DNA of 64,000 nt from Gammaproteobacteria bacterium (GTDB taxonomy: Bacteria > Pseudomonadota > Gammaproteobacteria > SZUA-152), in assembly GCA_024276955.1 (NCBI GenBank), contig JAJRWE010000033.1, positions 54-64,053 of the forward strand. The letters are read 5' to 3'. The translations under genes and the position numbers were made by a program. This document shows positions 5,286-63,958 of the stretch, piece by piece. The notes under the pieces are model-generated. The model saw nothing but the letters and a program-made list of their open reading frames with translations, made no database searches and was not told where the DNA came from. The stretch's first letter is position 1. Each line of letters opens with the position of its first letter.

Positions 5286-8200
5286 TCAGGTCATCGGGGA
5301 AGCATAAACCGGCGACGGCAGCATTGGGTAGGTGCGATACACATGCCTGAACACCTCCTCTGCTCTTTTGTTCACATCGTCCTCCGTGTACGCGTCAACG
5401 GGGAGCCCCGTTTCATCGCCCCACAGATAATCATGTATCGTAACTCGCACCGCATCACGGGTGGCTTCCTTGTCACGCCAGTGGTCAATGCGTAGCTTTT
5501 CTTCTTTCAGCCGCTCCAGTAACTGCGCCGCAACCTTCTTGATTTTCTTAATTTCTGTCGACTGCAAATCGGGCTTCTTCAAAAGATCGAAAATCGCCAA
5601 CGACTCTTCATCCAGCCCTTCACGAACGGCACGGTGTTCCTCTTCATCGAGCGCCTGAACAAGACTGAACAGCGCTTCAAAGGTTTTTTCGATCGTCGCC
5701 CGGTCTTTCTCTCGATTGTACCCAGCAACAATATTCTCGTAGTGCTGCTGAAAATCGGTGCGCAAAGGGTTTTGTTGCAAGAGGCGCTGCAATCGCTGTT
5801 CCACGGCCTGACGCAGGTTCTGCACGGTCGTATTTTTTGCTGAATGATGCCCAAACTCCTTGCGCAACAAATCAAAATCAATCTTGCTGATGTCATACGG
5901 CACAGGCTCCTCGCCCACGCACTCCGGCTGCACCTCGATCGCCTCATCCACCACCTGGTGCAACTGCCGAATAATGCCGCTGATATCCGCCTGCTCACGA
6001 TCCTGTTGCAGGCTCTTGTAAACAATGTTGATCGCATCTCTATCCGACCGATGAGCATTGATGCCCTGAACATTGATACAGGCCTTGAATTTCTTGAATA
6101 CCTCCCGGCACATCACCTCGAAGCGTTTACGACTCTCGTCACTCTCGTTGGCCGCTTCCTTGCAGGCGACGATGGCGGCATTGCGCTCAAAGCCGGTCTT
6201 TTGAATGATGTCATCAAGTGTAGCGGCCTGGCCTTCGAGAAACATTCGCACCAAAGCAATGGCCTCGGCCAGATCCGCCAGCAACTCCTCATCCGGCCGT
6301 GCCGGGTCGATCGCGCCACCCTCGCCCTCTGGCTGGGTACCCGCGAAGGTCGCCAGCGCCTTGCGCAGGTGCTTGAGAATGCCGCAGTAATCTACGATCA
6401 AACCGTTGTTCTTTCCCTCGTTGACGCGATTGGCACGCGCGATGGCCTGCATCAAGGTATGGGCCTTGAGGGGCTTATCCAAGTAGAGCGTGGCAAGGCT
6501 CGGCACATCAAAGCCAGTCAGCCACATGGCGCAGACAATCGCCACGCGCAGCGGATGCTCCTGCGCCTTGAAGGCATCGTCCAGCGCCATGGTCTGCATA
6601 TTTCGATACTCGGGCTTCTCTCGCATCGACTCGGGCAGATCGATACCCTCCTTCATCAGCCGGCGATGCGGGGTGATGTCCAGACCCCACTGGCGGAACT
6701 TGTCTACCTCGCCCTGCTCCTCACTCACCACCACCGCCATGCGGGTCTCGCGCATCCAGTCGAGCTGGCGACGGCGGAACAGCTCTTCCTGTTCATCGTC
6801 GATGGTTGCCAGCCCTTTTTCCAACTCACTGATTCGTTCGTCCCAGTAGAAGCCAATCAGCCGGTGCATGCGCACGCAGGTTACCTTGTCGATGCACACC
6901 AGCATCGCCTTGCCGGTCTCCCACGCGGTGGCGTAGTGCTGCACGAAGTCCCGCGCCACCTGATCGAGCCGCTTGTCGGCGGTGATAATGTGGTAGTCGC
7001 GCTTGAGTTCCCGCTCCAGCCGCTGCTCGACATCGATGTCATCGGCCTCCAACGCTTCCAGCTTTTCAGCAATACGTTCGTTGAGGTCACCGATGGCCAC
7101 GCCCAGCTTCTCGCCACGGGCATCGTAGTACAGCGGCACCGTGGCCTTGTCCTCCACCGCGCGCTGAAAGTCGTAGGTGGAAACATACTCGCCAAAGACC
7201 CGACGGGTGATCTCGTCGTCTTTGAACAGCGGCGTGCCGGTAAAACCGATATAACTGGCATTAGGCAGTGCATTGCGCAGATTGAGCGCCAGTGTGCCGT
7301 ACTGAGTGCGGTGTGCTTCATCGGTAATCACGATGATGTCATCACGCTCACTATAGGGCTGCTCCGGCTCGACCTTTTGATTAAACTTCTGAATCAGCGA
7401 GAAGATGTAAGCCTTGTGCTGGGTCAGCAACGTATTCAGATGACGGCCACTGGCCGCCCGGCACGGTTCCTGCTCACTCACCACGCCGCAATTGGCAAAG
7501 GTCTTGTAGATCTGGGTATCGAGATCGTCACGGTCGGTCAATACCAGAAAGGTAAAGTTGCCACCGAGCTTGCGGTGCACCTTGCGGGTAAACATCACCA
7601 TGGAATAGCTCTTGCCCGAGCCCTGGGTATGCCAGAACACACCCAGCTTTCCCTGCCGTGCCTTGCGCTCGCGCACGGAATCGATGGCGCGATTGACACC
7701 CAAAAACTGGTGGTTGCGGGCGATGATCTTCTTCGGCTCACCGGTGGTCTCATCGAACAGAATGAAGTTCTCCAGAAAGTCGAGAAAATTGCCCTTGTCA
7801 CACACGCCCTTGAGCAGTGTTTCCATGTCCACCGCCCCCGGGGCATCCTCGGCCAGGCGCTTCCACTCGTTGAAATGTTCCCAACGGCTGGTCATGGAGC
7901 CGATCTTGGCTTGCTCACCGTTACCAAACATCACGATGGCGTTGTGGTGGAACAGGTGTGGAACGGTATCGAGATAGTCGGAGAAGTTTTGTTCGAAGGC
8001 GGTCTTGAGATTCTTGTGAATGTTTTTGCATTCGATGAACAGCAGCGGCAAGCCATTGATGAAGCCAACGATATCCGCCCGCCGTCGGTAGAGATCACCG
8101 CGCACCCACAGCTCGCGCACGCAGAGAAAATCGTTGTTCTCTGGCTCATCGAAGTCAAGCACCCGCAGCCGCTGACGTACCCGCTCGCCGGTATCGTTGC

Positions 8201-10982: not shown

Positions 10983-12160
10983 TCCAGAGGAAGTGAAAGT
11001 TGAAGGTCACCAGAAATCATGATTTCTCCTAGTGTCAAAAGTTGATTTCGTACTGCATCGATATGCCCAGTAGACAACGGACATACAGAGGTAACGGCAC
11101 CACTGCGCTGAATGACAAAAACATTACTATCATCAAGATCAATATAATCGAGAAGAATTGGGCTATGAGTGGTTACGAATATCTGGGATCGAGCACTTGC
11201 CTCATTTAAATAGTCGTAAATAAGTGGAAGCGCCCCAGGATGCACTGTCAACTCAGGCTCCTCTATCCCAATAACCGTTAGCGCAGGCTTTTGTAACAAA
11301 GCTATCAGCAGACCTGCAACACGCAATGTTCCATCTGACTCAAGGTCAGCACCAAACCATTTTTTTGCTTTCTCTCCACGTGCCTTGTGATGGAATTGCG
11401 TAATCAGGAACCCTGATGCCTTTGCTACCTTAATATCGTCAATATCACCTGTAAGCTTTTCCAGTGCTGATACCAAATCTGGTTTCCAACCACTCTTTTC
11501 CTGCTGGTGGAGACTGGAGACCCAATTTTCACCACGAGGCTGCATTGGTGTCTCATTGCTATATTTCTGGGGTTCACGAAGCACATCAGGATAAATAGAA
11601 TAGACCATCATATTCGCCAGAAACTCCCATAACGGCTTGATCCGCGCATCTCCACCGAGAGACGTAACAGCTAAACTCTGACTGTCAATATTTGGACGCA
11701 AGTTCTCTGGTCCTTTCCATTCACCAGCATCAACAGAAAATGCTGTGGTTTCGCCTGAAATATTCAGGCTGCCCCACTCTTTCTTAACCCGGTATTCCTC
11801 ACCACGGTCACCAGTAATCTCAAATCCGTAGCAAACTTCACCATTCTCGAGCGAAGCCTCAATCTCAATTCTGACATTCCTGGGATGACCGCTACTATGC
11901 CTCCGTACTGATTCAATACCATTATTATTTGTGATAGCTCCTGGAAGGCCCATGCGAACAGCCTCTCGAACAAAGGTCAAGGCCCGAAGTACATTACTTT
12001 TCCCACTGCCATTGGCGCCAACGAGAAAATTAAGACGTCCCGGCCTGATGTCGACACTGGCGCCAATACTTCTGAAATTCGATAGGGTTAGCTTAGTTAT
12101 CATGGGATACTCCAAATATTCAAAGTGCTTTGCCTGGATTGCAAATACATATTGTGACAC
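10979..12160 (-). CDS. ABC-type (AAA_21/AAA_15-like, OLD/AriA-like) ATPase
   Basis: 393 aa (likely start MITKLTLSNFRSIG); Walker A LVGANGSGKSN, signature-like ESDGTLRVAGLL, Walker B/D-loop TVIGIEEPELTVHP, H-loop VTTHSP; no transmembrane domain. Confidence 0.8.
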   Translation of the reverse strand: MSQYVFAIQAKHFEYLEYPMITKLTLSNFRSIGASVDIRPGRLNFLVGANGSGKSNVLRALTFVREAVRMGLPGAITNNNGIESVRRHSSGHPRNVRIEIEASLENGEVCYGFEITGDRGEEYRVKKEWGSLNISGETTAFSVDAGEWKGPENLRPNIDSQSLAVTSLGGDARIKPLWEFLANMMVYSIYPDVLREPQKYSNETPMQPRGENWVSSLHQQEKSGWKPDLVSALEKLTGDIDDIKVAKASGFLITQFHHKARGEKAKKWFGADLESDGTLRVAGLLIALLQKPALTVIGIEEPELTVHPGALPLIYDYLNEASARSQIFVTTHSPILLDYIDLDDSNVFVIQRSGAVTSVCPLSTGHIDAVRNQLLTLGEIMISGDLQLSLPLD

Positions 12161-25699: not shown

Positions 25700-25865
25700 G
25701 GAACGTGCACGTAATAATTTCCTGATATGGCGCTCATATTTAGTCTGTATTTGTTTGTTCTGATTGAACAAAGGCGCAGGAATAGTTGTTCTATTTTGAG
25801 CTTTTGTGATTGAAGAACGGACGAAGACGGGCTGAAGATGGGATGCAAGATCGGGAAATTATTGC

Positions 25866-26462
25866 GTGCACGTTCCTGAGCCGCACATGGGCGCCAACAC
25901 CTTTACGCTGAAACTACAGCAGGTGTTGCGCGCCCACCCCGCTGGAATCAGCGAATTCAATCTCATAAAATGGCTTGAAGCTGACGGCCAGGCCGGCTTC
26001 GACAAGGACTGCCTGCGCACCAGCCTGTCGCTGTTTCAGACCCATTTCCTGCTGTTCCACAGCCTCTATCTGCTGCGCGACGAGTTGCGTGCCCGTGGCG
26101 AGGCCCGCCTGGATATCAGCGCACTCTGCATCCAGCTCGTCCCGCTCACACACACCTCGCCATCCGCCATCGACCGGCACGACCCACTGCGGGTCTATTA
26201 CCTGGATCTGAGCCATCTGGAAAACACCTGTGATAACGAGGTCGACGCCTTACTGAACACTTTCTGGGCGCGCTTCATCGGCAACGACGAACGCCGACAG
26301 GCACTCGGCGTGCTCGAACTGCAGGATCCGGTGGACTGGCCCACCATCAAGACCCGACACCGCAGACTGGCCATGCAGCACCACCCGGATCGCGGCGGCG
26401 ACGAGGCGCGACTGCAGGCCATCAATGCCGCCATGGATCGCTTGGCGCGTAGCTATAAATAG
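25866..26462 (+). CDS. DnaJ-related (J-domain C-terminal) protein
   Basis: 198 aa; C-terminal J domain with HPDRGGD (HPD motif). The true start is possibly at MGANTFTLK. Confidence 0.6.
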   Translation: MHVPEPHMGANTFTLKLQQVLRAHPAGISEFNLIKWLEADGQAGFDKDCLRTSLSLFQTHFLLFHSLYLLRDELRARGEARLDISALCIQLVPLTHTSPSAIDRHDPLRVYYLDLSHLENTCDNEVDALLNTFWARFIGNDERRQALGVLELQDPVDWPTIKTRHRRLAMQHHPDRGGDEARLQAINAAMDRLARSYK

Positions 26463-53497: not shown

Positions 53498-54592
53498 ATG
53501 AGCCGTCAAGCCCCGCCAAAAAGCACCAACGACAACTTCTTTCTGCCGGACTTCTGTTCCGTGCGCATGGTCTTCGCCGTGGTGGTCATCAGCGAGCTGC
53601 TGGCTATCGTCCTGACCCTGGCGCCGATGGAGAGCCGCAGTGGCCGCTGGGGTGATCTCAGCATCACCTCCCTGTTCATTCAATGGGTCGGCCTGAGCAG
53701 CGCCGCCGTGCTGTGCATCAGCCGCCCCCGACTGAGCCGTATGAATGAAACGCGGGCCGCCGTTACCAGCTATTTACTGTTACTCGTCACCACCCTGGTA
53801 ATCACCGAACTGGCCTGGTGGATCGGCCAGGAGATGCCCCATGCCGGCATCGGCAGCCAATGGAGCGCTGGCGGACGGCACACCGATCTGCTGCTGCGCA
53901 ATCTCGGCATCAGCGCCATCGTCAGCGCCCTGGTACTGCGCTACTTTTATGTTCAACAGCAGTGGAAGCAGAACATGCGCGCCGAGGCCGAGGCGCGCCT
54001 GCAGGCCCTGCAATCACGCATTCGTCCGCACTTCCTGTTCAACAGCCTCAATACCATCGCCAGCCTCACCCAGATCAACCCGCAGCAGGCCGAGGAGGCG
54101 GTGGAAAATCTTGCCGACCTGTTCCGCAACAGCATGGCCGACGCCAGCCACCAGATCACCCTCCGCGAAGAGCTGGCCCTTTCCCACCGCTATCTGGATA
54201 TCGAGACACTGCGTCTCGGTGATCGCCTGCAACTGCGCTGGTGCATCGACGAACTGCCGGGCGATGCCCTGGTGCCACGTCTCATCATTCAGCCACTGCT
54301 GGAAAACGCCATTTACCACGGCATCGAAACCATGGGCGCGGGCGGCATCATTGGCATAGACGGCCACCGGTATGACCGGGAAATCTACATCAGCATCAGC
54401 AATCCCCTACCCGCACAGCAGGACGCCAGACAACACCAGGGAAACCGCATTGCGGTGGAAAATATCCGCCAGCGTCTGGCCGCCATCTATGGCGAACAGG
54501 GAAGACTCACCACCCAGGCCGACGCCGACAGCTACATCACCACGATTACCCTCCCTTACACAACACTCGCTGATGTGGAGCCGAAGAAATGA
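53498..54592 (+). CDS. algZ: LytS/YehU-family sensor histidine kinase (AlgZ/FimS-like)
   Basis: 364 aa; 4+ TM helices then His_kinase domain (RIRPHFLFNSLNTIASL) and HATPase_c (IIQPLLENAIYHGIE). Confidence 0.8.
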   Translation: MSRQAPPKSTNDNFFLPDFCSVRMVFAVVVISELLAIVLTLAPMESRSGRWGDLSITSLFIQWVGLSSAAVLCISRPRLSRMNETRAAVTSYLLLLVTTLVITELAWWIGQEMPHAGIGSQWSAGGRHTDLLLRNLGISAIVSALVLRYFYVQQQWKQNMRAEAEARLQALQSRIRPHFLFNSLNTIASLTQINPQQAEEAVENLADLFRNSMADASHQITLREELALSHRYLDIETLRLGDRLQLRWCIDELPGDALVPRLIIQPLLENAIYHGIETMGAGGIIGIDGHRYDREIYISISNPLPAQQDARQHQGNRIAVENIRQRLAAIYGEQGRLTTQADADSYITTITLPYTTLADVEPKK

Positions 54593-55341
54593 AAGCGCTG
54601 ATCGTCGATGATGAACCCCTGGCCCGCACCCGCCTGGCACGCCTGCTGGATGATATTGACGGCATCGAAACCGCCGGTGAAGCCAGCACCGGACGCGAAG
54701 CGATTCAGCTGACCGACGCATTGAATCCGGATATTGTCCTGCTCGATATCCGCATGCCGGAAATGGACGGACTCGAGGCCGCCATGCACCTGTCACAACT
54801 GGACAGCCCGCCGGCGATCATTTTCACCACCGCCTACAATGAACACGCCCTGGCCGCCTTCGAGGCCAACGCCGTGGACTACCTGCTGAAACCCATTCGC
54901 CGCGAACGCCTGGCCGATGCCCTGGCCCGGGCACGGCGCATCAACCGCGCCCAGCTGCTTGACATCAACCAGCAGGAAGGCAGCGAAGAGAGTGCGCATG
55001 CGCGCACCCACATCAGCGCCAATATCGGCGGCAACTTGCAGTTAGTTTCCATTGAGGACGTGATTTATTTTCAAGCGGAACAAAAATACGTCACGGTGCG
55101 GCATCTCGGCGGGCAGCTGCTGATCGACGACCCGCTGAAATCACTGGAGGCGGAATTCAGTGACCGATTCCTGCGTGTGCACCGCAATTCCCTGGTCGCC
55201 ATGCAGTCCGTGCAGGGGCTTGAACGTATCCCCGGCGGACGCTACGAAATCTATTTCCGCACTATCGATGATCGGCTGGAAGTCAGTCGCCGGCTGGCAA
55301 CAGCGGTGCGCAGGCGGCTAAAGGGGGTGGGTCAGGTTTAA
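54589..55341 (+). CDS. algR: LytTR-family response regulator AlgR
   Basis: 250 aa; REC domain (LIVDDEPLAR...DIVLLDIRMP) plus LytTR DNA-binding domain; overlaps the algZ stop; argH-algZ-algR synteny as in pseudomonads. Confidence 0.85.
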   Translation: MKALIVDDEPLARTRLARLLDDIDGIETAGEASTGREAIQLTDALNPDIVLLDIRMPEMDGLEAAMHLSQLDSPPAIIFTTAYNEHALAAFEANAVDYLLKPIRRERLADALARARRINRAQLLDINQQEGSEESAHARTHISANIGGNLQLVSIEDVIYFQAEQKYVTVRHLGGQLLIDDPLKSLEAEFSDRFLRVHRNSLVAMQSVQGLERIPGGRYEIYFRTIDDRLEVSRRLATAVRRRLKGVGQV

Positions 55342-55407
55342 GCAACCATCCCGGCTTTTCAGGTGGCGCCGCAGAACCGTGTTACACACCAAAACAGCCT
55401 GCCTAAA

Positions 55408-56904
55408 TCACTGGTGATTTTTCCGGGTACCATAGAGTTTGATCTGCCATTTGATGAACGTACCGCTACCGCCCTCGGCCCTATCGACAGCCTTCAGCTG
55501 CCATTCCCCCCGGGACCGCTCGCCCAAATGCCGCATTGTTCCAAATCGCCAGTTATTGTACTGAAATACACCAAACATCTCGTTGTGCTGTTCGGCCAGA
55601 ACGCTTTCCGTTCCCTCGGGTGACGTCAGCACAATGTCCAGATCTCCCAGATTCGGGTGATCACTGGCATCGAAGAAAATATCGACAAATTCTATGTAAA
55701 GATCTCCGTCTACAAAGATTTCACTTTGCACGCCATCATTCTTACCATCTGGAATCGGCTCGCCAACATTCTGCTGATACTCAAGCATCTTTTCGTCACC
55801 CACACCCGCCCATTCTGCCGCAAATTGTACTGCCCTGTCTGCATCCACCAAACCGAATCCATATTGGTGATTGACAAGATAACCGGCGCCGTTCTCAATC
55901 CAATCCACATCGGAGGCATCATTCCGCCTGGCGCTCCTGGCGAGGATAATCCGCACATCCCGCCATGAGAGCCGCGGATTGGCTTCCAGCATCAAGGCCA
56001 CAACACCCGATACCATCGGTGCGGCTGCGGATGTACCACCGAAGTTGCCCGTGTAGCCTTGGTTTTCAAAGTCATCAGGAAACAGTGTGGGGTTATACCC
56101 ATCCTCCCCGGTAACATCGGTGGTCGTGATACCCAACCCTTCCGCACGCCCTTTCGAGGGTACACAGACAATCAGTGTCGCGCCCTTTTCAGAGTAAACC
56201 GCCTTTTTTCCATATTCATCGATGGCGCAGACAGGGATGGTGTAACGGTTGTTGACCAAACCGCTGTAATTGACGTTATCGATCGGCAGGTCATTGACGA
56301 CGCCATCACCGTTACCCGCGGCAAAAACATAGACAATACCCCGGCCGTTTCTGCCGTCAGTGACGCCATCGATCAACGCATCCCGTATCAGACTTTTCAG
56401 CGCCAGAGGCTCACCCCAGCTATTGATATCCCCCCAACTGTTATTAGAGATCCATACATGCTCTTTCTCTCTCACCAGGGCATCCGCCAGATTACTGACC
56501 GTTGCCAATCTCAAGGCATTGAAACCGATAATCCTGGCTTGCGGAGCAATGCCTTTGATTCCTTTTCCATTGCCTTCAACAGCGGCAATGATGCCAGCAG
56601 TCGCCGTACCATGGTCGGCCGCCTGCGAAAAACCATATTCCTCGGGCAGGTAGCTGTAACTCCCCTTGCCGATATTCGCTTGCAGGTCTTCATGAAAAAC
56701 GTCAATGCCATTGTCCACTGTAGCAACCAGCACACCCCGGCCTTTGTACCACGGTTGATTCAGATTGATATGCACAACGTCTGCATCACGAGCGCTGCCG
56801 GAAAGATACCACTGCTCGGCCGCGAGGGGATCGATCTCATAATCACTACCGCCGCAACTGACAAGAAAAACTAAACAGGCAGGAAGCAGGCTCAGGCGGC
56901 TCAT
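55408..56904 (-). CDS. Kexin-like S8 serine peptidase with C-terminal P-domain, lipoprotein, lacking an N-terminal prodomain
   Basis: 498 aa; lipobox LVSCGGS; catalytic triad motifs VATVDNGID (Asp), DHGTATAGIIAA (His), GTSAAAPMVSGV (Ser). C-terminal P-domain pattern HPNLGDLDIVLTSPEGTESVL...GEWQLKAVD...GTFIKWQIKLYG. The catalytic domain begins ~30 aa after the signal. Confidence 0.88.
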   Translation of the reverse strand: MSRLSLLPACLVFLVSCGGSDYEIDPLAAEQWYLSGSARDADVVHINLNQPWYKGRGVLVATVDNGIDVFHEDLQANIGKGSYSYLPEEYGFSQAADHGTATAGIIAAVEGNGKGIKGIAPQARIIGFNALRLATVSNLADALVREKEHVWISNNSWGDINSWGEPLALKSLIRDALIDGVTDGRNGRGIVYVFAAGNGDGVVNDLPIDNVNYSGLVNNRYTIPVCAIDEYGKKAVYSEKGATLIVCVPSKGRAEGLGITTTDVTGEDGYNPTLFPDDFENQGYTGNFGGTSAAAPMVSGVVALMLEANPRLSWRDVRIILARSARRNDASDVDWIENGAGYLVNHQYGFGLVDADRAVQFAAEWAGVGDEKMLEYQQNVGEPIPDGKNDGVQSEIFVDGDLYIEFVDIFFDASDHPNLGDLDIVLTSPEGTESVLAEQHNEMFGVFQYNNWRFGTMRHLGERSRGEWQLKAVDRAEGGSGTFIKWQIKLYGTRKNHQ

Positions 56905-57302
56905 TTTCTCAGGGTCAACCAGTACGGATAAGCAAACCGCACCTTGTCATCGAGATAAATCCGGTTGGCGATATCCAGAGAGGACTCCCTGTCGACGGTG
57001 CTGAAAAGATAATACCCGGAACCGATGCGAAGCCTTTTTAGCAGTGTTACGGCGTACCTTGCCTGAAAGTTCGCAAGGCTATCCGTACCTGGGGCATCGG
57101 AAAACTTGACGATGATATTGCCGGTCAGCCGGCGTTTGGGGGCATGTGATGAACCGCCAAAGCGATAGACATAGACGTCCAAAGTGGCATCGTAGCTACG
57201 CTCATGGATAAGCACTCTTCGGTCATCGTCATACCAGTACAAATCTCCACCCAGCACATTGAACGACAACAGGCTCAGAAGAAGAGGAAAAAGAAATCTC
57301 AT
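56901..57302 (-). CDS. Small secreted protein, possible trans-acting S8 prodomain/I9-like chaperone
   Basis: Start MRFLFPLLLSLLSFNVLGG (signal peptide). Mature ~110 aa shows prodomain-like pattern NIIVKF...YYLF...KVRFAYPYWLTLRK. ATGA overlaps with both neighbours. Confidence 0.35.
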   Translation of the reverse strand: MRFLFPLLLSLLSFNVLGGDLYWYDDDRRVLIHERSYDATLDVYVYRFGGSSHAPKRRLTGNIIVKFSDAPGTDSLANFQARYAVTLLKRLRIGSGYYLFSTVDRESSLDIANRIYLDDKVRFAYPYWLTLRK

Positions 57303-58558
57303 TGCCCCAGCCATTTCGGCATGGTGGAAACAAAATTGTAGCGGGTGGAAATTCGCGTGTCTGACCAATCACGGTCAATGGTTAGCGGCTTGCTGATGCG
57401 GGAGAAATCCCGGGAAACCACATAGACCCTGGCCAGGCTCCCGTCGCGGCTCTGCAACGTGAAGACCAGCCCATCCCCGATGGCATTGATACGTTCGAAT
57501 CGGTCACTGTATTCAAACGGGAATTCCTGCCAGGTATCCTTCTCCGAATCGTAACGAATCGCCCGCTGATCGCGGGTGAGAATGTAGATCGCCTCGTCCA
57601 CCGCAAAATAATGGTAGACACCCCCGTCGATCTTTTTCAGCCTGGTGTACGTCCACTCACCGCTTTTAGGATCCTCTTCGAAACGGTACAAGGTATCGCG
57701 CTCCATGCCGCGGTAATAGGCCTGAAATCGCGCCTCCACGGGATCATCGGGTATGGGTTGAGGCTGCTCAAGAAGATGTTCGTGGCCTTTTATGGCGGCT
57801 AGATAGCGCTCGGTTGCCGACCATAGCAGATAATACCGGTCACCATTACCGCGCACGTGAATGTCATTGAGACTGCCGGCCACCTTGCTCACCCGGGTAC
57901 GCCGGCCAGCATTCAAATCTAGCCGGTACAGCCCGGTATCGGGCGTTACAGTCTCTGGCGCCAGCAGTATATCGCCATAGATTCCTGCGCTGTCTCCTAG
58001 GGCCGCACCAAAACGATAAGAACGCTCCGGCCTGAAGCTTCGGTCATCCATACGAGAAAATGGAATATAGTGAGTATAAAGAAACACTTCTTTACCATCT
58101 TCACGGTACGAATGGCCGCGCTCTTTGTCTCGTATTAAAAAGGGTGAATCACCCAGAGACGCGTCCGGCGACTCTGCATGCAGGCGATTTGTCCCCACCA
58201 GAATGCCGTCCCGGTATGAAACAAACCTTACAGGCCCGTCAGAAAACCCGATCTGCTCAGCCTTTCCGTCCCGGTGAATAATCTCAAATCCCGCGTCCTC
58301 CTTTGCCGGGCCACGAAACTGGTAAGACGACAAGACAATATCCCGCTCACAGAGATAACTGCTCTGAAACCTCTGTTCCCCTTCATAGTGCTGAACCAGA
58401 CGAATTGCATTCGACGTTTTTTCGTAGGCCAGAAGATCAAACTGATTGCTCCCTGACACAACGAAGGTATTGTCGCAGTCAGTCACCACCGCCGTTTCAA
58501 CATCAGGCCTGCAGCCCAGCAATACGACGATCGTGATCAGAAACAGAAATATTGGCAT
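57299..58558 (-). CDS. Hypothetical lipoprotein
   Basis: 419 aa; lipobox LLGCRP; no recognisable catalytic motifs; beta-rich composition. Confidence 0.45.
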   Translation of the reverse strand: MPIFLFLITIVVLLGCRPDVETAVVTDCDNTFVVSGSNQFDLLAYEKTSNAIRLVQHYEGEQRFQSSYLCERDIVLSSYQFRGPAKEDAGFEIIHRDGKAEQIGFSDGPVRFVSYRDGILVGTNRLHAESPDASLGDSPFLIRDKERGHSYREDGKEVFLYTHYIPFSRMDDRSFRPERSYRFGAALGDSAGIYGDILLAPETVTPDTGLYRLDLNAGRRTRVSKVAGSLNDIHVRGNGDRYYLLWSATERYLAAIKGHEHLLEQPQPIPDDPVEARFQAYYRGMERDTLYRFEEDPKSGEWTYTRLKKIDGGVYHYFAVDEAIYILTRDQRAIRYDSEKDTWQEFPFEYSDRFERINAIGDGLVFTLQSRDGSLARVYVVSRDFSRISKPLTIDRDWSDTRISTRYNFVSTMPKWLGQ

Positions 58559-59871
58559 GTCCCAACCTTCTTTTTCTTCGACTCAGCCATCTTTACAACA
58601 AGGGTGTGATTCAAAATGTCATTAGGAAAAACGACCCAGCCACCATTGCTATCCAGATCGATATCCCTCCATTCGGGGCGCGACGATCCCGGCCGGGCAG
58701 TTTGCCTGTAGGCTTGCCAGACGAGTTGCGAGCAATAGGTTCTGTCATCGGCGTTCTTGTTGAAAAAGTTCCAGTTATAAGGCTTGTTAACTTGGCCCAT
58801 TGCCCAATTGACAATAGCGAACATGCGCTGCGTAACGTAGTTATAATAGTTTTTTCCACTCTGCGAGCAGTCCTTGTAATCGCAGGGCGGTGTAAAGTTT
58901 GGCCATCCGATGGAATGGGCGTAAGTATACCGCCTGACAGTATCGTACTTCTTTTGCCATGCATCCATTAGGAGAGCGCCTTGATGCAGGTTAACCCCTC
59001 CAGTATTGGCGTCCACGATCGACAACCATGCACCACCTGGCCTACTCCAAGACCAGGGCAGCGCCCCTCTCGCTATCTCGCCTTCCGTATTATTGAAGTG
59101 GGTTACAATTCCCATGTGGCCAAAACCAGCTCCTCCATCGCTCCAGATGATATCGCCAGGACGCCAGGCCCAGTCGGAAATATCCGATTCATGCTTGTAC
59201 TCGGGTTTCTCGTCTTTCTTCTTGTCCTTACCCCCGCCGCCCTTCATCGACGAGCTGTAGATAATGTACTTTGGGGCTCGGCCGGGCAACTCGTAGGGCA
59301 GGTTGTATTTTTCCACCAGTTTTTCCTGAGCCTTGAGGAAAACTGCATCATCTTTCGCCGTTTCCACTTCCAATGCCTTCAAGCGCGCAATCTCCTCCTC
59401 GGCCGACACTCCGAGGTCGAAGTAACGCACGGCGTCGGGAAGAGAATCCATATCGACCGCTGGAGGCCTGGCGCTCATCGCCTCATAGTCGCCGCTGTAC
59501 CAGGTCTCGCTCATCTGGGAAATCATGGCGCCAAACTGCCCGCTGACCTGCAACAACAGCATCCCGCTGCGGAACTCTGCAATGCTCCCCTCCACATCTT
59601 CACCTTTGGCGTACTGCAAAGCAAAGCCGTTGGCCACCAACTTGATCTCATTGATGACGGTGGCCTTGAACTCTTCCGGAAAGCCATATTCGCCGAAATA
59701 TTCGTCATAAAGCCAATCGGCATTCATGAAATTCTGGATTTCGACAGAGGCCGTCTCGGGTGAGGCGTATTCGACTTGAGGTTGATCGGGTGATGCGGCG
59801 TGATCTCCCTCGCTACATCCCGCCATAAAAAAAGCACTCAGAACAACATAGACAATAACCCTTTTCATCAT
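58537..59871 (-). CDS. Lipoprotein with C-terminal permuted papain-like (YiiX/C92-like) hydrolase domain
   Basis: 444 aa; lipobox FMAGCSEG; C-terminal RPGDIIWSDGGAGFGHMGIV (His first)...YNWNF...DDRTYCSQLVWQAY (Cys last), the order typical of permuted NlpC/P60-like YaeF/YiiX amidases; lysine-rich linker GGGGKDKKKDEKPEYK. Confidence 0.5.
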   Translation of the reverse strand: MMKRVIVYVVLSAFFMAGCSEGDHAASPDQPQVEYASPETASVEIQNFMNADWLYDEYFGEYGFPEEFKATVINEIKLVANGFALQYAKGEDVEGSIAEFRSGMLLLQVSGQFGAMISQMSETWYSGDYEAMSARPPAVDMDSLPDAVRYFDLGVSAEEEIARLKALEVETAKDDAVFLKAQEKLVEKYNLPYELPGRAPKYIIYSSSMKGGGGKDKKKDEKPEYKHESDISDWAWRPGDIIWSDGGAGFGHMGIVTHFNNTEGEIARGALPWSWSRPGGAWLSIVDANTGGVNLHQGALLMDAWQKKYDTVRRYTYAHSIGWPNFTPPCDYKDCSQSGKNYYNYVTQRMFAIVNWAMGQVNKPYNWNFFNKNADDRTYCSQLVWQAYRQTARPGSSRPEWRDIDLDSNGGWVVFPNDILNHTLVVKMAESKKKKVGTCQYFCF

Positions 59872-59920
59872 TCTCTCCCAGAGCTTCCTATCACTGAATT
59901 TTATGTCCGTATAAACCCTA

Positions 59921-59931
59921 CCCCCCCCCCA
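59921..59931. promoter_or_regulatory. Homopolymeric C(11) tract (G11 on the coding strand) in the putative promoter spacer of the four-gene operon
   Basis: Minus strand reads TTGACA-taatttcct-GGGGGGGGGGG-TAGGGTttat...(~40 nt)...GGGAGAGAATGATG. The tract lies between the -35-like and -10-like hexamers. Confidence 0.6.
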
Positions 59932-60048
59932 GGAAATTATGTCAAGTGCGAAATTACCACCCCGGCAATCCAGCCGGCCATTTTTGCGACCGACATGCCG
60001 TAACCGACAGGGAATCGAAAGTCTTGACAGAATAGTCAGTGCAGGGGC

Positions 60049-60120
60049 TGGAGCGCACCCCCGGCGGACGCTACGAAATCTATTTCCGCACTATCGATGG
60101 TCGGCTGAAGGGGATAGGCG
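60049..60120 (+). repeat. Imperfect direct repeat (~73 bp) of the algR 3' coding end (55210-55282)
   Basis: gtgcaggggctggagcgcacccccggcggacgctacgaaatctatttccgcactatcgatggtcggctgaag vs algR gtgcaggggcttgaacgtatccccggcggacgctacgaaatctatttccgcactatcgatgatcggctggaag. The reading frame is preserved (VQGLERTPGGRYEIYFRTIDGRLK...). Confidence 0.9.
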
Positions 60121-60180
60121 GCTAGTCGACCACGAAGGTCGCGAAGAAGTGGTTCGAAATATCACGAAAAAAGACATCAA

Positions 60181-60342
60181 CCGTAGGAGCGGGCCATGCC
60201 CGCGATGGTCACGATATTGTAGGAGCGCCTTCAGGCGCGACAGCCAGAATCAATCAAACTGTCGCGCCTGAAGACACTCCTACAAGTGCATCGATGAAGC
60301 CTTGATGATAAAACCATCGCGGGCATGGCCCGCTCCTACGGG
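60181..60342. repeat. REP-like nested palindromic element
   Basis: Outer 28 bp perfect inverted repeat ccgtaggagcgggccatgcccgcgatgg / ccatcgcgggcatggcccgctcctacgg. Inner imperfect inverted repeat tgtaggagcgccttcaggcgcgacag / ctgtcgcgcctgaagacactcctaca. Confidence 0.85.
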
Positions 60343-60866
60343 CCCGTACCCTGACGTAACAGTACACGTGCCACATCGATGGCCTGATCCAGATAGGCAG
60401 GGTAGAAATCCGGCGAGGTGTAGCCGACGATCCTGGGCACCAGCTCACGGCCCTCGCCATCCAGCAGGTAGAGGGTGGGCACCATACCGACCCTCTTCCG
60501 CCGCACCAACTCGTCGGCACTGATTTCCCGCCCCTGGAAATCACGCAGGCTGTCCGCCGTCTCCAGCATGATTTTGCGCAACAGCACCCGACGCGGGTCG
60601 TCACCGACCAGTTTCATCGGCCCCAGTACCTCGGCCTCCAGTCGCTCACAAAAGTGGCAGTCTTCACTGGCGAACATCAACAGGATCGGCACACCGGCCT
60701 CGCGCACCATGCGGCCCAGTGCCTGCAGGTCACTGACCTCCGTCAGTTGTGTGTGGGGGCCGTCCTCGGCCATATCGTCTTCATCGGCCAGCACCGGCAA
60801 GGCGAACAGGCCCAGCAGTGCCAGTGCAAGCCATTGGCAGATAATGGAATTTTGTAATCTGCTCAT
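60336..60866 (-). CDS. Periplasmic thioredoxin-fold protein (CxxC)
   Basis: 176 aa; signal peptide; MFASEDCHFCERLE CxxC; the 3' end runs into the REP arm, so the true stop may differ. Confidence 0.6.
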   Translation of the reverse strand: MSRLQNSIICQWLALALLGLFALPVLADEDDMAEDGPHTQLTEVSDLQALGRMVREAGVPILLMFASEDCHFCERLEAEVLGPMKLVGDDPRRVLLRKIMLETADSLRDFQGREISADELVRRKRVGMVPTLYLLDGEGRELVPRIVGYTSPDFYPAYLDQAIDVARVLLRQGTGP

Positions 60867-60902
60867 CGTGCTGTTACCCGTCTACCATGCCCAAATCACG
60901 AC

Positions 60903-60973
60903 CGTAGGAGCGGACCCTCGGGCCGCGAAAGGGCCCTGATGCCAAACCTTCGCGGCCGAGGGTCCGCTCCCAC
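60903..60973. repeat. REP-like palindrome (gtaggagcggaccctcgggccgcgaa ... ttcgcggccgagggtccgctcccac)
   Basis: ~23 bp stem with ~19 nt loop; same GTAGGAGCGG core as the other two elements. Confidence 0.8.
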
Positions 60974-61018
60974 CTGTCGGTGTTCAATCTCAGAGTCTCA
61001 GGCGCCACCCGGAGTTCC

Positions 61019-61495
61019 TCAGTCCAGCAACATCCACAGCCCCAGCAGGGCAAGAACCAGGGCAAACACCCGTTTCAATGCCAGTCCCGACAGCCGATAC
61101 GCCAACCGCGCACCCAGCGGGGCGAACAGCACGCTGGCGGCCACCAGCAATTCGAAGGCACCGAAGCCCACCCTCAGCCACTGCCCGGACAGCCACGACG
61201 CCTGCATCGCCCTCAGCCCAGCACCCAACAGGATACCCGGCGCCAGCCGCCGAACCTGAGGCCACAGCACCACGCCGCGCCAGTGATGGGCACGCACCGA
61301 GGAGACGGAAGTAAAGACGATACTCGCCAGCGAGGTAGCAATGGCCATCTGCATCAGCCAGGGGCTGTCGACACCGCCCTGTTGCCAGATGGCCAGCAGT
61401 ACCGGCACGATGATCAGGCCACCGCCGATGCCCAGCAGGCCGGCCGAAACGCCGGCCAGCACACCCAATAACAGATACGCCGCCAAGGCCTCCAT
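61019..61495 (-). CDS. TSUP (TauE/SafE) family membrane protein, half-length
   Basis: 158 aa; single GLLGIGGGLIIVPVL repeat motif where full-length TauE proteins (~250 aa) carry two; possibly truncated. Confidence 0.55.
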   Translation of the reverse strand: MEALAAYLLLGVLAGVSAGLLGIGGGLIIVPVLLAIWQQGGVDSPWLMQMAIATSLASIVFTSVSSVRAHHWRGVVLWPQVRRLAPGILLGAGLRAMQASWLSGQWLRVGFGAFELLVAASVLFAPLGARLAYRLSGLALKRVFALVLALLGLWMLLD

Positions 61496-61501
61496 TATTC
61501 C

Positions 61502-63958
61502 CTATCCCAGTACCAGGGGTTCCGGGGTAGCAATGAAATAGCCCTGGGCATAGTCGACACCGATTTCATCCAGTGCCTCCAGCACACCCAGGCGGGTAAC
61601 GAACTCGGCCACGGTCTGTATGCCCATCAGGTGGCCGATTTCGTTGATGGCCGCCACCATCGCGCGGTCAACGGGATTACGATCCATATCCTTGACGAAG
61701 CTGCCGTCTATTTTCAGATAATCCACGGGCAGGTTCTTGAGATAACTAAAGGAACTCAGGCCGCTGCCGAAGTCGTCCAGGGCGAAATGGCAACCCATGC
61801 GCTTGAGTTCGCTGATCAGGCCCACAGCGTGGCTCAGGTTGGTGATGGCGGTGGTCTCGGTCACCTCGAAACACAACCACTGCGGCGGTACGCCACTGGC
61901 CAGCACCGCGGTGGTGACAAAGGCCGGAAAGTCCTCATCACACAGGGACTGACCGGACAGGTTGATGGACAGGTTCATCACCCCGCCCTGCGCTTGCAGG
62001 GCGCGCAGGAAGGTCAGCACCTGTGTCACCACCCAGCGATCGATCTGCGGCATCAGATGGTAGCGCTCTGCGGCGGGCAGGAAGCTGCTGGGCACAACCA
62101 ACTCCCCCTCCCCGGTACGCAGGCGCAGCAGAATCTCACTGTGCGGTGTGTCATTCCCTGCCGGCGGGACCCCCTTCATGGGCCGGATGGCCTGCTGATA
62201 CAGCACGAAGTCATCGTTTTCCAAGGCCTGGCGGATGATTTGCAACCATTGCATCTCGCCCTTCTGATGCAACAGGGCCAGATCGTCCGGTGCGAAGACG
62301 TGCAGCCGGTTGCGGCCCTGATCCTTGGCCACGTAGCAGGCGGAGTCGGCGGCGCTGAGGACATCGGTGATATTGCCGCTCTGCGCGCTGATGGGCGCCA
62401 GGCCGATGCTGATACCCACATCGAAGGCCTTGTCGGCCCAGACGAAACGGAACTCGGACACCATCTGCAACAGGTTATTCACCACCCCGCGCGCCTGCTC
62501 CAGATGACAGCCTTCCAGCAGCAGGCCGAACTCGTCACCCCCCAGGCGGGCGAGGATATCGGCCTCACGGATCGAGGCCCGCATACGCGTGGCCAGCTGC
62601 TTCAGTAACTCGTCGCCGGCCACGTGGCCACAGGTGTCATTGACTACCTTGAAGCGATCCAGATCCATGTAGCACAGGACATGCTCGATACTTTCATGCC
62701 GGGCGCTCTCCAGCGCCAGTTCCAGACGCGCCTCGAATTCATGCCGGTTGATCAGCCCGGTGAGGGAATCGTGGCTGGCCTGATACGACAGGCGGTGGGT
62801 GAGCGAGGTCAGTTCGGTGGTGTCGTGGAACACCAGCACCACACCCAGGGCCTGCTGGTCCGCATCCTGGATCGCCGAAACGCGCACCTCTACCGCGAAC
62901 TCCTTGTCGCCCTCGCGGTTCAGCAGGTTCAGTGGCCCCGGCAGGGGAAAACTATCGGCCGAAGCCAGACAACGCACCACCGGATCCGTCACGGGCTGAT
63001 CACTGTCTTCATCCATCAAGCGCAGCACCGTTGCCAGCGGTTGCCCCATGGCCTCCTCACGGGTCCAGCCTGTGAGTTTTTCGGCCATGACATTGAGGTA
63101 GCCCACCCGCCCCTCGGTATCCGTCGTCACCACCCCGTCGGCGATGGACTGCAGCGTCGAACAGGCAAATTCATCGGCCTTGTGAAACATCGAGGGACGC
63201 CGCTCAAGCAAGGCCGGCACATTCTCCACCACCGCCTCCAGTGGCTGCCTCGACGGCCCCAGGCTGCGCACGAACATCAGTGTACCCAGCACCGCCAGCA
63301 GTTGCAGCAAGGCCCAGACAAACAGTGTCTCTATACTGAAATAGCCCGTGTGCGACCAGTAGTACTGCAGCAGCAGGGTAGTCACCAGCAGTGGCACCAT
63401 GGCCCCCAGCATGAACACCCTGGTACGGATGGAGAGCAACGGCCGCGACAGGTGCAGACCACTCAGGGTGCGACTGAACAGGTCGAAGACGGCAAGGAAC
63501 ACCGGCAGACCAACGATGATAAAGGCGATCAGCGCCACCAGATGGATGCGCAACCAGTCCCCGGTCGTGGCCTCAAAGTCCGTGGCCATCTCGGCGCTGA
63601 CGATGACCGAGGCCGGGGCCAGCAGCAGATAAAACAGAAACACCCCCCAGAAGTGGCGGGGAAAGGCCCGCACCCGGGCCAGTGCAGTAGCGGCGGTCGA
63701 CTCACCGGGCTGCGCCAGCCAGTCCGCCACCGGACGCACAAAGCGGCTGAAATACCACTGCGAAAAAAACAGCCAGCCCAGTACGAAGCCCACCTCCAGC
63801 GGCGTGGTCAACAATTGCAGGATCTGCTGCAGCGAAAACATGCCGATAAGCAACAGAAAGAACATGCCGAACAGCGGCGTAATCAGCCACGCCAGCAGGA
63901 TCAGCAGACGGAAGTGCCGTATGAAATCGGCGCCGGAAGGAGGGTGCGCCGCAGACAC
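61502..63958 (-). CDS. Membrane sensor PAS-GGDEF-EAL protein (bifunctional c-di-GMP cyclase/phosphodiesterase architecture)
   Basis: 818 aa; ~8 N-terminal TM helices, PAS (LQSIADGVVTTDTEGRVGYLN), GGDEF (RLGGDEFGLLL), EAL (CFEVTETT...DDFGSG...YLKIDGSFV). Confidence 0.85.
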   Translation of the reverse strand: MSAAHPPSGADFIRHFRLLILLAWLITPLFGMFFLLLIGMFSLQQILQLLTTPLEVGFVLGWLFFSQWYFSRFVRPVADWLAQPGESTAATALARVRAFPRHFWGVFLFYLLLAPASVIVSAEMATDFEATTGDWLRIHLVALIAFIIVGLPVFLAVFDLFSRTLSGLHLSRPLLSIRTRVFMLGAMVPLLVTTLLLQYYWSHTGYFSIETLFVWALLQLLAVLGTLMFVRSLGPSRQPLEAVVENVPALLERRPSMFHKADEFACSTLQSIADGVVTTDTEGRVGYLNVMAEKLTGWTREEAMGQPLATVLRLMDEDSDQPVTDPVVRCLASADSFPLPGPLNLLNREGDKEFAVEVRVSAIQDADQQALGVVLVFHDTTELTSLTHRLSYQASHDSLTGLINRHEFEARLELALESARHESIEHVLCYMDLDRFKVVNDTCGHVAGDELLKQLATRMRASIREADILARLGGDEFGLLLEGCHLEQARGVVNNLLQMVSEFRFVWADKAFDVGISIGLAPISAQSGNITDVLSAADSACYVAKDQGRNRLHVFAPDDLALLHQKGEMQWLQIIRQALENDDFVLYQQAIRPMKGVPPAGNDTPHSEILLRLRTGEGELVVPSSFLPAAERYHLMPQIDRWVVTQVLTFLRALQAQGGVMNLSINLSGQSLCDEDFPAFVTTAVLASGVPPQWLCFEVTETTAITNLSHAVGLISELKRMGCHFALDDFGSGLSSFSYLKNLPVDYLKIDGSFVKDMDRNPVDRAMVAAINEIGHLMGIQTVAEFVTRLGVLEALDEIGVDYAQGYFIATPEPLVLG

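Follow-up and report, generated by a model that had tools for sequence, protein, structure and literature searches.

How does a complete operon come to lie in the coding end of a global regulator, leaving that regulator undamaged, when it encodes no recombinase of its own? The question is raised by a 4.8 kb block of low GC content at the 3′ end of algR in a 64,000-nucleotide stretch of contig JAJRWE010000033.1 (assembly GCA_024276955.1), from an uncultured vent gammaproteobacterium of the SZUA-152 lineage; the whole of this stretch is referred to here as the window. The block lies between two copies of a direct repeat of algR sequence. We propose, with moderate confidence, that segment 55279–60033 was integrated at the algR 3′ end by a Campbell-type event, carrying a four-gene envelope module as cargo. 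The locus offers a clean natural example of such an insertion, and its two algR termini keep a record of the exchange.

The repeat is 74 nt long, with 68 of 74 positions identical (92%); copy 1 spans 55205–55278 and copy 2 spans 60034–60107. The longest identical run between them is 41 nt (55230–55270 in copy 1), and an exact core of 40 nt, CCCGGCGGRCGYTAYGAAATCTATTTCC, is present at 55231–55270 and 60060–60099. These are its two occurrences in the window, and none was found in 100 shuffles. The original prediction, made from the sequence alone, had the last ~73 bp of algR recurring ~4.8 kb further on, from 60049. A second copy is indeed found at that distance and its core is unique to the two sites, but copy 2 begins ~15 nt earlier, at 60034, and the repeat is not the end of the gene, which continues for 63 nt to 55341. 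The algR-like gene (54589–55341, plus strand) is intact and encodes a 250-residue response regulator with Response_reg and LytTR domains, ending in RLKGVGQV*. Copy 1, which resembles an attL site, corresponds to codons 206–230 and falls inside the LytTR domain (residues 151–244). Because of this position, an insertion that did not rebuild the end of algR would truncate the LytTR domain, and AlgR could be kept whole only by an insertion that brought a replacement end.

The composition of the block differs from that of its surroundings, with 52.2% GC between 55414 and 59948 and 61.9% and 61.7% in the two flanks. Following copy 1 are the 63-nt algR terminus and a unique spacer of 72 nt (together 55279–55413, plus strand), which would be incoming DNA under a Campbell model. 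At the other end, a unique 85-nt spacer (59949–60033) that matches no other locus separates the operon from copy 2; a weak terminator-like hairpin is seen within it at 59962–59977. Between the spacers are four overlapping genes, all on the minus strand, with no further gene among them, as had been described.

The two copies lead into different algR ends. Copy 2, which resembles an attR site, is a relic of an algR 3′ end (60034–60125, plus strand). It is closed upstream by a TAG at 60033–60035, reads VQGLERTPGGRYEIYFRTIDGRLKGIGG and reaches an algR-type stop, TAG, at 60123–60125, with a terminus of RLKGIGG. The 42 nt between two CGGCTG motifs have been lost in frame, by a microhomology deletion. 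The earlier description of copy 2 as running into divergence and a stop is right about the stop; the apparent divergence after RLK is this deletion followed by another algR terminus. The tail of copy 2, CGGCTGAAGGGGATAGGCGGCTAGTCGAC, matches the algR end of a related locus, L096, at 25 of 28 nt, including 5 nt past the stop codon (local score 41, against 15.6 ± 2.1 for shuffles), and the L096 protein has the same KGIGG* terminus. The terminus of the functional algR in the window, KGVGQV*, is instead of the type found in another relative, L083 (KGIGQT*), with similarity again continuing for a few bases past the stop. Since the two termini differ and each matches another relative, the sequences point to recombination between two algR alleles rather than to duplication in place. 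It also follows that the functional algR end is not the one that originally lay beside the downstream thioredoxin-like gene. That the algR C-terminus had been regenerated, as originally proposed, is supported by the intact LytTR domain and by a terminus unlike that of the displaced relic.

The mismatches between the copies are unevenly spread, with five in the first 25 nt and one in the next 49 nt, after which each copy has a tail of its own type. Under random placement, an identical run of 41 nt has a probability of 0.04 (74 nt, six mismatches) or 0.004 (89 nt, including the tail), both values depending on just 6–12 mismatches. A diverged arm, a near-identical centre and a diverged tail would be the trace of exchange or conversion between two diverged homologous segments.

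The site was compared with that in relatives. The nearest AlgR homologues, at 86–92% identity, were found in metagenome-assembled genomes and on metagenome contigs, with at least one from a hydrothermal-vent metagenome, and the flanking DNA of the window is 84–88% identical to that of six related loci. Homology between the window and its relatives ceases at or before the algR stop codon at 55341, and from genome to genome it runs out within ~10 nt of that codon. L083 is a near-empty site, in which algR is followed by 0.4 kb of 48% GC DNA with a 68-residue open reading frame (ORF) and a repetitive extragenic palindromic (REP) sequence (11163–11239), and then by the thioredoxin-like, TauE and GGDEF/EAL genes in the order seen in the window. 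The original prediction had suggested a search for just such an arrangement. In L081 and L092 the same place is occupied by a He_PIG/Big_5 surface-protein gene, in L084–86 by an element resembling a miniature inverted-repeat transposable element (MITE) followed by a different neighbourhood (M48, LemA), and in L096 and L097 by other content again. No second piece of algR is present in the related loci (L083, L081/L082, L084–86, L092, L096 and L097), so the repeat, which might have been an older duplication standing at empty sites, is not found there. Low-GC DNA begins at the algR stop codon in all of them, and the last codons differ in nearly every relative: in the window, L081, L083, L084, L092, L096 and L097 the tails after the shared RLK are drawn from GVGQV, GIGQT, GIGG, GLGTN, NLSQG, SLGQG and G. 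Because content, low-GC DNA and last codons differ among relatives in this way, the site after algR appears to be a hotspot of recombinational replacement in this lineage. The duplicate is specific to the window.

The cargo is also found elsewhere. The whole operon is present at a single locus represented by two NCBI assemblies and two metagenome contigs (L087–L090), where it is 84% identical to window positions 55414–59948 and has a methyl-accepting chemotaxis protein gene on one side and mnmG/gidA on the other, with parAB and the atp operon nearby. The same order of four genes, beginning with a homologue of the first gene product at 35–44% identity, recurs in L094 and, surrounded by housekeeping genes, in L093; the other three L093 proteins match those of the window at 25%, 24% and 56% identity. 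The GC content of the operon is 6–13 points below that of its flanks in the window, L087 and L093. The genes are under purifying selection, with ratios of non-synonymous to synonymous divergence (dN/dS) of 0.10–0.41. Together, the near-empty site, the compositional difference, the single algR end in the six loci and the occurrence of the operon at an unrelated locus bear out the claim that foreign DNA was inserted at the algR 3′ end. The homology limits of the operon at 55414 and 59948 were considered as borders of the element and rejected, as they coincide with the stop codon of its last gene and with the operon leader and, at a synonymous divergence (dS) of ~0.6, reflect the reach of selection.

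We suggest that block 55279–60033 entered the chromosome by a single reciprocal, Campbell-type recombination with the algR 3′ end already present. The incoming DNA, probably circular, would have carried the four-gene operon joined to ~137 nt of an algR 3′ end that differed slightly from the resident one. A crossover inside the near-identical central part of the repeat would then convert a resident [a-core-b] and an incoming [a′-core-b′] into [a-core-b′]-insert-[a′-core-b]. Here b is the KGIGG* tail beside the native REP and thioredoxin-gene DNA, b′ the KGVGQV* tail now used by algR, and a′ a 26-nt arm that starts abruptly at 60034. In this way algR would keep its own 5′ part and gain the incoming KGVGQV* terminus, with the LytTR DNA-binding domain intact, while the resident KGIGG* end would be displaced 4.8 kb to the right, to decay as a relic with two amino-acid changes and the 42-nt deletion. 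Copy 2 indeed lies 55 nt from the REP cluster and thioredoxin-like gene that are syntenic in relatives. The model also specifies the reciprocal products: at the restored site the left arm of copy 1 would run through the core into the tail of copy 2 (...ATCCCCGG...GATGGTCGGCTGAAGGGGATAGG), and at the junction of the circle the left arm of copy 2 would run through the core into the tail of copy 1. The recombinase would not have been encoded by the island; it may have been a site-specific integrase acting in trans or later deleted, or RecA acting on ~50 nt of near-identity. Site-specific and homology-driven recombination, both of which had been put forward originally, would each fit these data.

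Several observations weigh against a Campbell-type origin. Domain searches revealed no gene for an integrase, an excisionase or a transfer function, either within the island or among its neighbours (fimS, algR, the thioredoxin-like gene and TauE), and none of the ORFs adjoining the two tRNA genes of the window is an integrase. No flanking repeat or mobility gene surrounds the operon in L087–L090 or in L093, and no donor is known in which the operon adjoins algR. Scans with the core pattern found no further islands flanked by algR repeats; in degenerate form, the pattern matched one metagenome contig (L092, with no duplicate) and no viral contigs. The divergence of the operon (dS between the window and L089 of 0.41–0.63) is close to that of core genes of genus-level relatives (0.39–0.52), as would also be the case if the operon had long resided in the genus and was relocated later. 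To these may be added the small number of mismatches behind the clustering statistics and the fact that the locus is known from a single metagenome-assembled contig. Other searches were negative: an AlgR scan of genome contigs returned generic response-regulator peptides, the best of the matches listed being 56% identical, and neither the 419-residue protein nor the C92 protein of the operon (both described below) had a match in plasmid or phage collections.

As a proposed Campbell-type insertion, the island can be compared with elements known to integrate in the 3′ ends of protein-coding or tRNA genes, namely ICEs (integrative and conjugative elements) as well as IMEs (integrative and mobilizable elements), and with cis-mobilizable elements (CIMEs), which have kept their att sites but lost the genes for integration and transfer (PMC5704250). 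The island resembles these in consisting of cargo only, with att-like repeats retained and integration and transfer genes gone, in its atypical composition, in the existence of empty sites in relatives, and in its direct repeats, with an exact 40-nt core, and a target gene rebuilt by element-borne sequence. It differs from them in several respects. Its target is algR, which we did not find reported as an attachment site in a literature search. No related integrase-bearing element was found that would point to descent of the island from an ICE or IME. At 4.8 kb it comprises a single operon with no backbone remnant, its spacers being only 72 and 85 nt, and its repeats are long (74–137 nt) and diverged outside the 41-nt core. 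Unlike a site-specific integrative island, it has no tyrosine or serine recombinase domain among its four genes, in agreement with the original observation that no integrase remains. It is therefore a recognisable kind of event, a fairly ordinary genomic-island scar, at a target for which the literature search found no report, and it does not overturn current understanding.

Homology-facilitated illegitimate recombination offers a different route, and we regard it as unlikely. Linear DNA from a related strain, with one end anchored by homology in algR or on the side of the thioredoxin-like and TauE genes and the other joined illegitimately at 60033/60034, would leave part of algR twice without a circular intermediate or an integrase. 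This is a mechanism of transformable bacteria, and like the present locus it places foreign DNA beside a homologous anchor without an element-encoded recombinase. It is favoured by the abrupt start of copy 2 at 60034, with unrelated sequence upstream, by the presence of both termini as alleles in close relatives, and by the different content after algR in every relative, which suggests frequent recombinational replacement. However, direct repeats that are long and share an identical core are not what such recombination usually leaves, and the near-identical centre, set beside an arm and tail that differ by 20–30%, is unexplained unless gene conversion followed. A sliding-window comparison of fimS-algR with the six relatives, although of low power, showed no mosaic block that would mark a donor tract.

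A more specific form of site-specific integration can be envisaged, in which an unlinked site-specific recombinase recognises the algR 3′ end and, acting in trans, moves the operon and its 137-nt algR-like segment as a cassette of cargo alone. Uncultured vent gammaproteobacteria would then possess a counterpart, on the scale of an operon, of integron cassettes or CIMEs, and the differences among all relatives in the low-GC DNA directly after the algR stop and in the last algR codons would be accounted for. We consider this quite improbable. The operon itself is not an algR-targeting element, as its copies in L087 and L093 have neither repeat nor mobility gene. The original prediction had suggested a search for the cassette elsewhere between similar duplications, and no such case was found with the core pattern; it had also held that relatives with the cassette but no repeat would refute the insertion. 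L087 is literally such a case, at another locus, and it counts against a self-contained element that targets algR but not against insertion at this site.

Duplication of the algR 3′ end in place, for example through slippage of replication or a switch of template as an illegitimate insertion occurred, followed by neutral decay of copy 2, is more doubtful still. In its favour, the near-identical centre has states in both copies that are found in no relative (an ACT codon and a GAT/GGT third base), and polarisation with outgroups assigns four changes (two non-synonymous) and the deletion to copy 2 and two synonymous changes to copy 1, as decay of one copy would produce. Against it stand the clustering of the mismatches, which is not the uniform spread expected, and the two terminus types, each of which occurs, together with a few bases past the stop, in another relative. 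The six repeat mismatches were also sorted by hand into synonymous and non-synonymous changes, and the ratio of the two was set aside because it did not discriminate between models. Finally, it is very improbable that the contig is a chimera joining two strain variants through a common algR core. In favour of this, two window proteins (P0121 and P0124) are found on one NCBI contig only, look-ups of three window proteins (AlgR, the 419-residue protein and the C92 protein) gave no gene record for that contig, and two terminus alleles are what two co-assembled strains would give. Against it, the operon leader and 85 nt of unique sequence stand ahead of copy 2, with no shared k-mer through which an assembly graph could re-enter at 60034, copy 2 has a deletion and substitutions of its own, and other assemblies contain the operon as a genuine unit under selection.

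The cargo delivered by the proposed Campbell-type integration appears to be a conserved envelope module consisting of a C92 amidase-like lipoprotein, a second lipoprotein of 419 residues, a free prodomain and a kexin-like S8 lipoprotein that lacks one. The S8 gene (55408–56904, minus strand; dN/dS of 0.10 against L089) encodes a predicted lipoprotein of 498 residues with the lipobox LVSC, a Peptidase_S8 domain (PF00082, E = 4.8e-41) and a P-domain (PF01483, E = 3.9e-18). Its catalytic and P-domains align over their full length with mature furin (1p8j, E = 1e-52) and kexin (E = 1.5e-48), and with the Aeromonas protease ASP (3hjr, E = 2e-35). The furin alignment starts at residue 24 of the S8 protein, 7 residues after the lipobox cysteine, which leaves no room for a prodomain; the protease thus lacks one.

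Directly upstream, with an overlap of 4 nt, is the gene for a small secreted protein of 137 residues (56901–57314, minus strand; the probable start is M19, the mechanical ORF beginning at a TTG at 57368). Sequence and profile searches gave it no family or PDB match, and a Pfam search of the small proteins gave none either, but an exhaustive search returned 44 representative relatives. Two of these, P0188 and P0195, have the homologous segment on the N-terminal side of their Peptidase_S8 and P_proprotein domains, immediately before them (BLASTP, 2e-13), and a further two show a match to the prodomain family of fervidolysin. In four of five orthologues the last residue is lysine or arginine, which is what a kexin-like active site would bind. 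As relatives carry it fused to S8, match a known prodomain family and have such termini, the small protein is a detached prodomain. A fold search and remote homologues also indicate a prodomain-like fold, and on this homology and fold it is a free-standing convertase prodomain.

A precedent is ASP of Aeromonas sobria, a kexin-like protease deficient in a propeptide that needs the adjacent ORF2 as an external chaperone and temporary inhibitor (PMC5638518), the C-terminal lysine of ORF2 docking in the ASP active site (PMC5638518; PDB 3hjr, 3wqb). The window S8 protein is likewise kexin-like and has a P-domain but lacks an N-terminal prodomain; a small secreted protein, in what would be the prodomain role, is the product of the neighbouring gene, and the terminal lysine of ORF2 has its counterpart in the lysine or arginine of four of five small-protein orthologues. 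By analogy, the prodomain may fold the S8 protease and transiently inhibit it in trans. There are also clear differences. Neither the window small protein nor its profiles match the ORF2 family (PF18492, 3wqb chain B), the only trace being in a remote homologue, P0171, at 18.6 bits, below the cut-off of 29.2. The small-protein gene lies upstream of its protease gene whereas that of ORF2 lies downstream, the window protease is a predicted lipoprotein whereas ASP is a secreted toxin, and the window unit has two more conserved lipoprotein genes (C92 and 419-residue). The catalytic and P-domains align from end to end with furin and kexin, which like PC1/3 are eukaryotic proprotein convertases. In those enzymes the prodomain is in cis; in the window it is a polypeptide of its own, in a bacterial host, and lipid anchoring of the proteins is predicted. 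As the related bacterial proteins P0188 and P0195 have the prodomain fused, the window arrangement is a split version. The cargo would therefore represent a new version of the external-prodomain arrangement, in which the prodomain of a furin-like protease has become detached and is encoded by a gene of its own, extending the principle of ASP and ORF2 to another prodomain family and to envelope-anchored enzymes. The small protein and the S8 protease form a testable pair for folding by a prodomain in trans.

The remaining two genes encode predicted lipoproteins. The third from the left (57299–58558, minus strand) encodes the 419-residue protein, with the lipobox LLGC and mostly beta structure. 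It has no Pfam or NCBIfam match and is represented by only three clusters among 5.8e9 proteins; a 25%-identical homologue occupies the same position in L093 (E = 3e-32). An AlphaFold2 model built from three sequences was discarded, its predicted local distance difference test score being 36. The first gene of the operon (58537–59871, minus strand) encodes a 444-residue protein with a C-terminal permuted-papain domain of the C92/NlpC-P60-like type (PF05708, E = 2e-9), at 38.2 bits against a cut-off of 27, though only profile positions 78–122 of 166 are covered; weak matches to CHAP and Amidase_6 are seen at residues 213–263. It has 28 homologues, and those examined have the same four-gene order. 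Taken together, the domains suggest a proteolytic and amidase module of the envelope or surface. Vent gammaproteobacteria carry this four-gene lipoprotein module, and a low-GC metagenome contig has a diverged form of it.

The operon is preceded by a conserved leader (59872–59948, minus strand), with L087 homology ending at 59948 and a TTGACA hexamer at 59940–59945. Between this hexamer and the first gene is a run of ten C (59921–59930; G on the coding strand), where L087 has GGTGGGGGG. This run could possibly act as a slipped-strand switch of operon expression. Scans of the locus for promoters and terminators gave nothing above shuffles, and no promoter was called in the leader by the consensus scan.

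Other copies of the operon show variation of their own. In L091 (2256–3501) a decaying operon lies beside a DUF498 gene, its S8 gene in pieces of 159 and 246 residues with the 3′ end missing. The first operon gene is shorter in L087 (8690–8835) and L088 than in L089, and L089 differs from L087 by a 1-nt indel. In L087 a RES/Xre toxin-antitoxin pair of the MbcA/ParS type (5322–6508) lies 2 kb from the operon, and hemD-hemX-hemY, which follow algR-hemC in pseudomonads, are found a further 5 kb along.

The regulator itself is in a familiar setting. As in the Pseudomonas FimS/AlgR system, a regulator with receiver and LytTR domains lies downstream of its partner, a FimS/AlgZ-like histidine kinase gene (53498–54592, plus strand; PF06580 His_kinase, E = 2.7e-25) that is syntenic in all relatives, and argH is divergent upstream of the pair. 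Unlike in Pseudomonas, hemC is not downstream of algR, either in the window or in relatives, which have a thioredoxin-like gene after algR. The absence of hemC had been noted originally and is correct, but hemC is not an expected neighbour in this lineage, as the host is not a pseudomonad. The name AlgR is given by the Joint Genome Institute (JGI) to one (P0001) of the homologues at 86–92% identity and to many more distant matches; the best NCBIfam model for the window protein is BtsR, at 157.8 against a cut-off of 246 and thus below it.

To the right of copy 2, the native DNA between algR and the thioredoxin-like gene contains nested REP-like palindromes (60181–60341; I1, 29 nt, 100%; I2, 27 nt, 93%). 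These are of the GTAGGAGCGGGCCATGCCCGC type, begin 55 nt past the stop of the relic and recur at 60904–60973 after the thioredoxin-like gene; a related REP is found in L083 and a half-site in L096. The thioredoxin-like gene (60336–60866, minus strand; PF13098, E = 1.1e-10) is the native right-hand neighbour and is syntenic in L081 and L083. Compared with those two loci, the adjacent TauE/SafE gene (60867–61501) is missing ~300 nt (158 residues against 261–262), and a GGDEF-EAL protein is missing ~590 nt of its N-terminal sensor region near 63184–63189 (818 residues against 1003–1032). With the 42-nt loss in copy 2, the right flank of the island thus has three deletions.

Two of the other occupants of the site after algR deserve mention. 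The He_PIG/Big_5 surface-protein gene, encoding 692 residues at 52–54% GC, fills the gap between algR and the thioredoxin-like gene in L081 (7178–9256) and L092 (5395–6387), without a repeat. The MITE-like element is also present in the window, at 25700–25876 between genes for an FKBP isomerase and a DnaJ-related protein, where it measures 177 nt and is bounded by terminal inverted repeats of 23 nt (GGAACGTGCACGTAATAATTTCC). In L084–L085 a copy of 86% identity stands directly downstream of algR (L084, 11033–11206). It is a small mobile element of this lineage that has also landed at the algR-downstream hotspot.

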